A DNA stretch of 64,000 nucleotides from an uncultured Candidatus Micrarchaeota archaeon (GTDB lineage: Archaea; Micrarchaeota; Micrarchaeia; Anstonellales; Bilamarchaeaceae): contig CAWDBH010000010.1 of assembly GCA_963800555.1 (NCBI GenBank), positions 104,603 through 168,602 on the forward strand. The letters run 5' to 3'. The notes below the pieces were generated by a model, which ran no database searches, had not been told where the DNA came from, and worked only from the letters and a program-made list of their open reading frames with translations. The position numbers and the translations under genes were made by a program. Within the stretch, counting starts at the first letter, position 1, and each line of letters starts with the position of its first letter. This document shows positions 20,047 to 63,901 of this stretch, piece by piece.

Positions 20047-20955
20047 TCATTTCCTCACCTTCGCTAAAAAGAACCCGCCCGTATCGTTGTGGTGCGGCCA
20101 TACCCGGACGCATGATGAGACGCGAGGATCGAATTCCTTACCATCATATCCGGTGATGCCGTCGCAGGTCTTGAAGCCTTCGACGCTAACCCTCTCCAAT
20201 GAAGACCCTTCTCGGTTCTTCAGGAGGTGATCCACCACCAGCTCGTTTTCCTCTGGTGCGAACGTGCATGTGGAGTACACCATCACTCCGCCAGGCTTGA
20301 GAAGATCGTATGCCTTGAGGATGAGGACGCGCTGGTTGCCGGAGTAGGATGACACCGCCCTTGGGGACCAGCTGTCGAAGATATGGTCATGCTTGCGTAT
20401 GGTCCCTTCCGCGCTGCAGGGCGCATCCAGGATAACGACATCATATGATTGGTCCGGCAGATGCTGGAGATCGTAGTTCGTGATTATCGTATTGATGACA
20501 CCTGATTTCTCCAGATTGAACTTCAACGCGCGTATACGATCATAATCCAGATCATTCGCGATTATGGTGCCTTTGTTCCGCATGATAGCAGCCATTTGCG
20601 TAGTCTTGGACCCTGGTGCTGCGCATCCGTCGAGCACGATCCTGGCTTCCTCGAGCTTCTCCTTCACGATTACGGGGGGTAGCATGGAAGCGACCTCTTG
20701 GATGTATATCATGCCAGTAAAATGCTCCAACGTCGCTCCTATCCCCAGCGAATCGCTCACGAACGCATCAGAGCACCATCCCATCTGCCTGAGCCCGAAC
20801 CCATAGCTCTCCATGCGGGTTTTCACATCCTGGGCTGAAGCCTTCAGGGTGTTCACGCGAAATGATTTGGGCAGCGGCCGCTCGAGCGCTGCAAGAAAAG
20901 CGTCCGGATCGTCAACCAATTTGAGGTAACGATCCTTGAAAGGTTCTGGTATCAT
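20047..20955 (-). CDS. NOL1/NOP2/Sun family RNA cytosine-C5 methyltransferase
   Basis: VLDGCAAPGSKT SAM motif, DAPCS and TCT catalytic cysteine motifs. Confidence 0.9.
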   Translation of the reverse strand: MIPEPFKDRYLKLVDDPDAFLAALERPLPKSFRVNTLKASAQDVKTRMESYGFGLRQMGWCSDAFVSDSLGIGATLEHFTGMIYIQEVASMLPPVIVKEKLEEARIVLDGCAAPGSKTTQMAAIMRNKGTIIANDLDYDRIRALKFNLEKSGVINTIITNYDLQHLPDQSYDVVILDAPCSAEGTIRKHDHIFDSWSPRAVSSYSGNQRVLILKAYDLLKPGGVMVYSTCTFAPEENELVVDHLLKNREGSSLERVSVEGFKTCDGITGYDGKEFDPRVSSCVRVWPHHNDTGGFFLAKVRK

Positions 20956-37861: not shown

Positions 37862-39353
<1,492 letters not shown>

Positions 39354-63712: not shown

Positions 63713-63839
63713 GGGCCTGTAGCTCAGTTTCTTTTTGCTATTTTTTGCCTTATAGGGCAAAAACGCAAAATATAGAGCAACTTGGTAGAGCGTCGGACTT
63801 TTAATCCGCAGGCCGAGGGTTCAAATCCCTCCAGGCCCG
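63713..63839 (+). tRNA. tRNA-Lys(UUU) with a ~54-nt intron in the D-loop
   Basis: GGGCCTG-TA-GCTC-AG-[54]-TTGGTA-GAGC-G-TCGGA-CTTTTAA-TCCGC-AGGCC-GAGGG-TTCAAAT-CCCTC-CAGGCCC-G. Confidence 0.85.
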
Positions 63840-63901
63840 TTTTCCCTTTTTCATCGCCCGGACATAACTAATTTTAATCGCTTTCAGGCATATCATTATC
63901 C

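Follow-up and report, generated by a model that had tools for sequence, protein, structure and literature searches.

A tRNA-Lys(UUU) gene with a predicted D-loop intron at position 15/16 in a Micrarchaeota genome

Described introns of archaeal tRNA genes

Introns at non-canonical positions of archaeal tRNA genes constitute a well-described class (PMC4033280, PMC4090602, PMC8450103). The archaeal splicing endonucleases, according to PMC3239211, cut after the second base of each of two 3-nt bulges, which lie on opposite strands with a 4-bp helix between them (the bulge-helix-bulge, or BHB, motif). The intron reported here, which lies in the D-loop of a tRNA-Lys(UUU) gene of an uncultured Candidatus Micrarchaeota archaeon, adds one more case to a phenomenon already known, the protein-spliced archaeal tRNA introns. 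Its features can be understood by comparison with the following described systems.

One is ARMAN-2 (Candidatus Micrarchaeum acidiphilum), which belongs to the same phylum and whose splicing endonuclease (PDB 4FZ2) has a full-length counterpart in the genome analyzed here (Fujishima et al. 2011, PMC3239211; Hirata et al. 2012, PMC3488258; PMC12397907). The tRNA genes of ARMAN-2 are, like those of the present genome, heavily interrupted at several positions and carry relaxed BHB motifs (PMC3239211). The difference is in the position: the published examples are located at 37/38, 53/54, and 59/60, and the main text of that report describes no 15/16 intron in tRNA-Lys. Another is Aeropyrum pernix, in which pre-tRNA-Thr(UGU) carries a BHB intron in the D-loop that is spliced both in vivo and by the recombinant (αβ)2 EndA (PMC3241643). 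There too, a broad-specificity endonuclease with an extra loop is needed, and the D-loop is cut more slowly than the anticodon loop (PMC3241643). However, A. pernix belongs to another phylum, the tRNA is a different one, the enzyme is a heterotetramer with a Crenarchaea-specific loop, and its motif is described as canonical (PMC3241643), whereas that of the present gene is relaxed.

The third system is pre-tRNA-Glu(UUC) of Methanopyrus kandleri, which contains a D-loop intron at 20b/21 in a relaxed HBh′ motif with a weak outer helix, and for which the mature sequences were obtained by RNA-Seq; the intron is located on the 3′ side of the D-loop, in contrast to 15/16 here, and both the lineage and the enzyme are different (PMC5829648). 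The last comparison concerns the intron families of the Thermoproteales (Fujishima et al. 2010, as cited in PMC4090602 and PMC8450103). In these families, similar introns occur in tRNA genes of different identity, as is the case at 15/16 for Lys(UUU), Lys(CUU), Arg(UCU), and Arg(UCG) in the Micrarchaeota genus studied here. The Thermoproteales are of another phylum, and the host genes in the present genus differ from theirs in that all of them share nearly the same 5′ half and a single site.

Against this background, the locus is very probably a functional tRNA-Lys(UUU) gene, the only one found, whose 53-nt intron at 15/16 would be excised from a relaxed BHB motif by an epsilon2 endonuclease to give a 74-nt tRNA after splicing.

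Structure of the gene and its predicted splice joint

The source assembly amounts to 1.46 Mb in 22 contigs, with a G+C content of 53% and a completeness of 86%. The window, i.e., the whole stretch of 64,000 nucleotides that was analyzed, contains an archaeal 16S rRNA gene at 37862-39353 and, at 63713-63839 on the forward strand, the tRNA-Lys(UUU) gene with the interrupted D-loop; the letters agree with those of a preliminary description of this stretch. The features of the locus are listed in Table 1. TTTAAA-type boxes are also found 31-38 nt upstream of position 1 at most of the tRNA-Lys loci examined, including most of those in the same genus. Similarly T-rich trailers follow most of the orthologues, and the T-runs 3′ of the present gene are a likely archaeal transcription stop. 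Exon 2 does not encode the CCA end. Exon 1 ends with the second base of the 5′ bulge AG↓U (the arrow marks the predicted cut here and below), and it is identical in the same-genus Lys(UUU) genes of the genomes G004, G028, G005, and G015 and in the Lys(CUU) gene of G023.

Table 1. Features of the interrupted tRNA-Lys(UUU) locus (positions in the window)
Feature	Position	Strand	Remark
Putative promoter, TATA-like box TTTAAA	63680..63685	+	33 nt upstream of tRNA position 1; function predicted
Exon 1, 15 nt: acceptor 5′ strand GGGCCUG, U8 A9, D-stem 5′ strand GCUC, A14 G15	63713..63727	+	
GCUC, D-stem 5′ strand; 5′ strand of the central BHB helix H in the precursor	63722..63725	+	
Predicted intron, 53 nt, tRNA position 15/16	63728..63780	+	BHB geometry, uninterrupted orthologues, Lys(CUU) paralogue, G017 identity
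Intron hairpin, distal part of helix h′	63733..63770	+	Minimum-free-energy fold and h′ pattern
GAGC, 3′ strand of helix H, copy of the D-stem 3′ strand	63775..63778	+	
3′ bulge AA↓C, predicted cut 63780/63781	63779..63781	+	
Exon 2, 59 nt: C16 to discriminator G73; anticodon UUU at 63800-63802	63781..63839	+	
T-runs TTTT CCC TTTTT directly 3′ of the gene	63840..63851	+	Putative archaeal transcription stop

The standard tools overlook this gene. ARAGORN called no tRNA at the native locus either with or without its intron mode, because it models introns in the anticodon loop only. The Rfam tRNA model gave a match to 63776-63831, corresponding to only model positions 9-63, with 33.4 bits; an intronless orthologue (in G031) scored 73.1 bits. 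When the two exons as delimited in the preliminary description were joined, ARAGORN returned a tRNA-Lys(ttt) of 73 nt with a cloverleaf containing a U-C mismatch at 27:43. Removal of the insert thus restores a complete tRNA cloverleaf, and this bears out the preliminary claims that a tRNA-Lys(UUU) gene is interrupted in its D-loop and that the U27:C43 pair is mismatched. The consequence of the oversight is that the genome seems to be without a tRNA reading AAA, by which any judgement of tRNA completeness would be distorted. The same blind spot was reported for D-arm introns in Asgard archaea in a 2026 preprint (10.64898/2026.10.13.758758). Independently of this locus, the intron mode of ARAGORN labeled the tRNA-Lys(CUU) gene (contig C8, 72339-72442, reverse strand), which carries an intron at 37/38, as tRNA-Ser(tga). 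In a genome so rich in introns, the calls of ARAGORN cannot be relied on; several isoacceptors escaped it altogether.

When the 127-nt precursor is folded to minimum free energy, its acceptor, anticodon, and T arms are preserved, and GCUC at 63722-63725 pairs with GAGC at 63775-63778. These form a central helix of 4 bp located between the 3-nt bulges AG↓U and AA↓C on opposite strands. The suggestion that the insertion carries a GAGC mimicking the 3′ strand of the D-stem was therefore correct: this GAGC pairs with GCUC as the central helix of a BHB motif, with a 3-nt bulge on each side. The hairpin that had been noticed within the insertion was also recovered in the fold, as a 9-bp helix (63742-63750 with 63755-63763) extended by a helix of 6 bp (63733-63738 with 63765-63770). 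When the intron was shuffled, the full 4-bp central helix appeared in this register in 0.5% of the trials, and a central helix together with an inner helix of at least the observed quality appeared in 0.08%. The flanking helices are less regular. The outer helix h consists of a sole pair, A9:U, next to the bulge, and the inner helix h′ is composed of 1 bp, three mismatches (3 × 3), and 6 bp. With so little of the outer helix formed and with an irregular inner helix, the motif belongs to the relaxed type, and its flanking helices fall short of those of the strict hBHBh′ form. The single pair followed by three mismatches in the inner helix is also the reason why the fold displays an internal loop of 7 nt/4 nt instead of a clean 5′ bulge.

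The position of the joint deserves attention, because the preliminary description had placed it elsewhere. In that version, the intron is real but 54 nt are removed, so that the D-loop would read AGUUGGUA (8 nt) in a tRNA of 73 nt. A D-loop of 8 nt is structurally acceptable in general, and ARAGORN accepts the 73-nt and 74-nt products equally readily as tRNA-Lys. The registers are clearly distinguished by the central helix: that joint and its two sequence-equivalent shifts each form only 1/4 of the pairs, that is, the 73-nt product would come from three registers lacking the helix, whereas the register with G15 at the end of exon 1 and C63781 at the start of exon 2 forms 4/4. The orthologous tRNA-Lys genes, which were collected by a DNA search of 60 relatives followed by locus parsing, provide another clue. 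The D-loop AGCUUGGUA is found uninterrupted in G031, G024, G060, G056, G017, and others, and also in the tRNA-Lys(CUU) gene of the same genome, which has an ordinary 37/38 intron; the C in question is kept in that paralogue and in all the uninterrupted orthologues with a CUUGG-type D-loop. In addition, the predicted 74-nt product is exactly identical to the exons, i.e., the mature tRNA, of the tRNA-Lys(UUU) gene in the same-genus genome G017, where the D-loop is uninterrupted, which argues against the 73-nt joint. We thus consider the 73-nt alternative improbable. Register scoring and the uninterrupted orthologues favor 63728-63780 as the intron, and, with C63781 belonging to exon 2, the mature tRNA would be 74 nt long and have the D-loop AGCUUGGUA. 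The earlier placement in the D-loop accordingly stands, while its sizes of about 54 nt for the intron and 73 nt for the tRNA are replaced by 53 nt and 74 nt, C16 being kept and the 3′ site lying one base further 5′.

The cuts predicted from this geometry and the orthologues are after 63727 and after 63780, and the predicted spliced joint is GCUCAG-CUUGGUAGAGC (i.e., ...GCUCAG-CUUGGUA...). The steps expected on this basis are transcription, cleavage at these exact bonds, and ligation. Transcription would yield a body of 127 nt with the 53-nt intron between positions 15 and 16. In this precursor, GCUC would pair with the intron-borne GAGC, not with its mature partner in exon 2. A homodimeric three-unit epsilon2 endonuclease would then cut after the second base of each bulge, and an RtcB-type ligase would join G15 to C16. 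Finally, GCUC would re-pair with the GAGC of exon 2, thereby forming the D-stem of the 74-nt tRNA.

Conservation of the gene and the enzymes for its predicted processing

The preliminary description had proposed a comparison with orthologous genes for the presence and position of the intron. In this comparison, the relatives were found to contain the intron at the same site as well as uninterrupted versions of the gene. An intron at exactly the 15/16 site was found in 11 distinct Lys genes of relatives, with lengths of 32 to 104 nt. Several features of the splice motif recur in them. One is that the 3′ bulge AA↓C is present in all of these genes (11/11 distinct same-site genes scored). Another is that the 3′ strand of helix H is GAGC, GAGU (with a G-U pair), GCGC, GAGA, or GAGG, so that changes from G-C to G-U are seen in H across the relatives. 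The last is that at least 9 of the 12 scored h′ positions are paired in 6 of the 11 relatives' genes, and the sequences that form them are unrelated. The strict pattern of site and motif was detected in at least 10 of the 40 species genomes of the genus, the present one included, and this number is a lower bound because variants such as those in G011 and G014 escape the pattern. A scan of named public genomes with the pattern gave 9 records, of which 8 are labeled Candidatus Micrarchaeota or Micrarchaeia and one is the uncultured archaeon isolate LFW-283_2. Seven of these records hold the same genes as the same-genus loci analyzed here, and the other two match the genus-search hits in G003 and G001.

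The site is shifted in two genomes, G005 (locus L004) and G027 (L024), where the intron lies two bases further 3′, at 17/17a. The central helix there is formed by UCAG:CUGA with 4/4 pairs in G005 and by UCAG:CUGC with 3/4 pairs in G027. The structure of the lysine tRNA genes varies widely in the genus: that of G003 (L036) has three introns, located at 15/16, at 37/38, and in the T-loop, and the Lys(CUU) gene of G026 (L023) has an intron within the 3′ strand of the D-stem.

These data bear on the alternative that the insertion has disrupted the locus, leaving a pseudogene that is decaying or unexpressed, and that the tRNA for the lysine codon AAA comes from a gene missing from the assembled contigs. 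Since the assembly is 86% complete and divided into 22 contigs, a second gene is conceivable, and the relaxed form of the BHB motif also counts in favor of this alternative. However, the exon identity to this gene across the relatives is 95-100%, with the exons 100% identical to those of three other species, whereas the intron identity is 42-72%, that is, as low as 42%. Such a difference is the pattern of a gene under selection with a freely drifting insert. Moreover, the insertion keeps the splice motif in 12 of the 12 genes scored, this one included, and promoter-like and terminator-like signals are retained at the locus. The U27-C43 mismatch is a trait of the lineage and not a sign of decay, because the orthologues have A27-C43. 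The preliminary description had itself named another intact tRNA-Lys(UUU) gene as an argument against its reading. BLAST and pattern searches revealed none in the 86%-complete assembly; the lysine tRNA genes found there are only this one and the CUU isoacceptor. The AAA codon accounts for 2.14% of the codons in 632 long ORFs. By the established decoding rules, a CUU anticodon does not read AAA. We therefore regard the pseudogene alternative as very unlikely, and the locus is real and conserved, and almost certainly a functional intron-containing tRNA-Lys(UUU) gene.

A further alternative is that the insertion is no ordinary intron but that its hairpin chiefly serves as a functional RNA, such as a C/D-box guide, or represents a mobile element. 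Some archaeal tRNA introns encode C/D-box guides, the present one folds into a stable hairpin, and its sequence family occurs in several tRNA genes. In the 53-nt intron, though, neither box C (RUGAUGA) nor box D (CUGA) is present. A BLAST search of the intron against the genome detected no significant other copy, from which it follows that the intron is not a dispersed repeat; its only relative in the genome is the tRNA-Arg intron described below. Since the introns at the same site in the orthologues are unrelated in sequence, no sequence-specific function of the intron is conserved, and the conserved parts of the intron are those of the splice motif only. This alternative is accordingly given hardly any weight, and the insertion is treated below as an intron.

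The genome contains one splicing endonuclease gene, a frame of 407 aa with Pfam hits to the N-terminal domain and, strongly, to one catalytic domain. Its product aligned end to end with the epsilon2 EndA of ARMAN-2 (E 2.9e-133) and is intact in the three-unit architecture. The catalytic residues Tyr236, His251, and Lys282 are conserved, as are Tyr160 and Lys161 of the ARMAN-specific loop, the roles of these residues being those described for ARMAN-2 EndA (PMC12397907). In vitro, the epsilon2 type of enzyme cleaves relaxed as well as strict motifs, and the substrates described in PMC3239211 have their introns at 37/38 and 59/60, with no D-loop cleavage among those described there. Nor is cleavage of a D-loop substrate reported in the other papers on epsilon2 enzymes considered here. 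With the present locus, the expected repertoire of this endonuclease would be extended to a relaxed motif located in the D-loop. The earlier idea that the splice sites are presented in a helix-bulge context gains support from the recurrence of the architecture in the orthologues and from the presence of this broad-specificity enzyme in the genome.

An RtcB ligase gene was not found in this 86%-complete assembly. RtcB is present in 34 of 36 same-genus genomes, and for this reason its absence is most likely due to an assembly gap. The alternative that the absence is a real trait was set aside, since the same-genus genomes nearly all carry the gene and the assembly is incomplete to the extent stated. 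In several relatives (among G025, G042, G045, and G052-G054), RtcB is encoded in a frame of 910-981 aa with the match split at about residue 50. This split match looks like that of an intein.

D-arm introns in the genus and a family shared by Lys and Arg genes

D-loop introns were considered in the preliminary description to be among the rarer non-canonical ones. This view overrates their rarity for the present lineage: D-arm introns are common in the genome and the genus, and D-loop introns are documented in other archaea as well (PMC3241643, PMC5829648). In the genome itself, inspection of partial tRNA hits uncovered a tRNA-Arg(UCU) gene (contig C9, approximately 20128-20290, forward strand) with a 15/16 intron ending in GAGCAG↓C, and the tRNA-Thr(GGU) gene on contigs C3 and C14 has a 15/16 intron ending in GCGCAA↓C; both thus share the site and the splice motif of the Lys(UUU) gene. 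Four other partial Rfam tRNA hits (C8:3464-3534, C8:56893-56950, C8:143940-144036, and C5:94037-94093), apparently of Val(UAC), initiator Met, Trp, and Asp(GUC), contain additional nucleotides that separate the D-arm from the acceptor 5′ strand. From these sequences, D-arm introns look frequent in this genome. The tRNA-Thr(GGU) gene, which has introns at 15/16 and 37/38, occurs twice (C3:4831-4940, forward strand, and C14:3182-3291, reverse strand) with identical flanks of at least 120 nt; this is explained either by a genuine repeat or by contig ends that were assembled twice.

The similarity among the 15/16 introns was evaluated by comparing their sequences with the core of the Lys(UUU) intron, from which the six constrained 3′ bases had been removed, and by expressing the result as z relative to shuffled controls. 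The z value was 6.4 for the Lys(CUU) intron of G023, 5.8 and 5.4 for the Lys(UUU) introns of G011 and G004, respectively, and 4.4 for the Arg(UCU) intron of this genome; for the Lys(UUU) introns of seven other species, it was about 2 or less. An intron family of the form TTTnGTTTTGCTAATTTT...GAGCAG↓C at 15/16 was recognized (loci L045, L046, L051, L052, and L022). Its hosts include the Lys(UUU) and Lys(CUU) genes, the tRNA-Arg(UCU) genes of this genome, G004, and G017, and the tRNA-Arg(UCG) genes of G004, G033, and G010. These host genes share almost the same 5′ half, GGGCCYGTAGCTCAG.

The occurrence of the family at 15/16 points to a spread between tRNA genes, which may have proceeded by gene conversion or by intron transposition of the kind described for the Thermoproteales (cited in PMC4090602). 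Because the hosts share the 5′ half and the site, gene conversion is as likely as transposition. It is a possibility only slightly short of evenly balanced that 15/16 is a lineage-specific hot spot where a single intron family has passed from one tRNA gene to others of different identity within the genus. If this is true, it would extend large-scale tRNA intron mobility, described to date in the Thermoproteales, to DPANN archaea having an epsilon2 endonuclease. Of the leads from this analysis, the intron family found in both Lys and Arg genes is the most interesting. The genus provides a natural series for the gain, loss, and copying of tRNA introns, in that the same site is found with or without an intron, with introns of unrelated sequences, and with one family common to Lys and Arg genes.

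Finally, a small element was noticed near one of the intronless genes. In G052 (L015), 60 nt upstream of the intronless tRNA-Lys(UUU) gene, there is a 45-nt mini element, GGGCCTGTAGCG-ATTTTGCCAATAGGCAAAAACG-ATCCAGGCC. It is composed of the acceptor 5′ strand, a hairpin resembling that of the Lys(UUU) intron, and most of the acceptor 3′ strand; it could have been left by a deletion or could constitute a tRNA-like minihelix.
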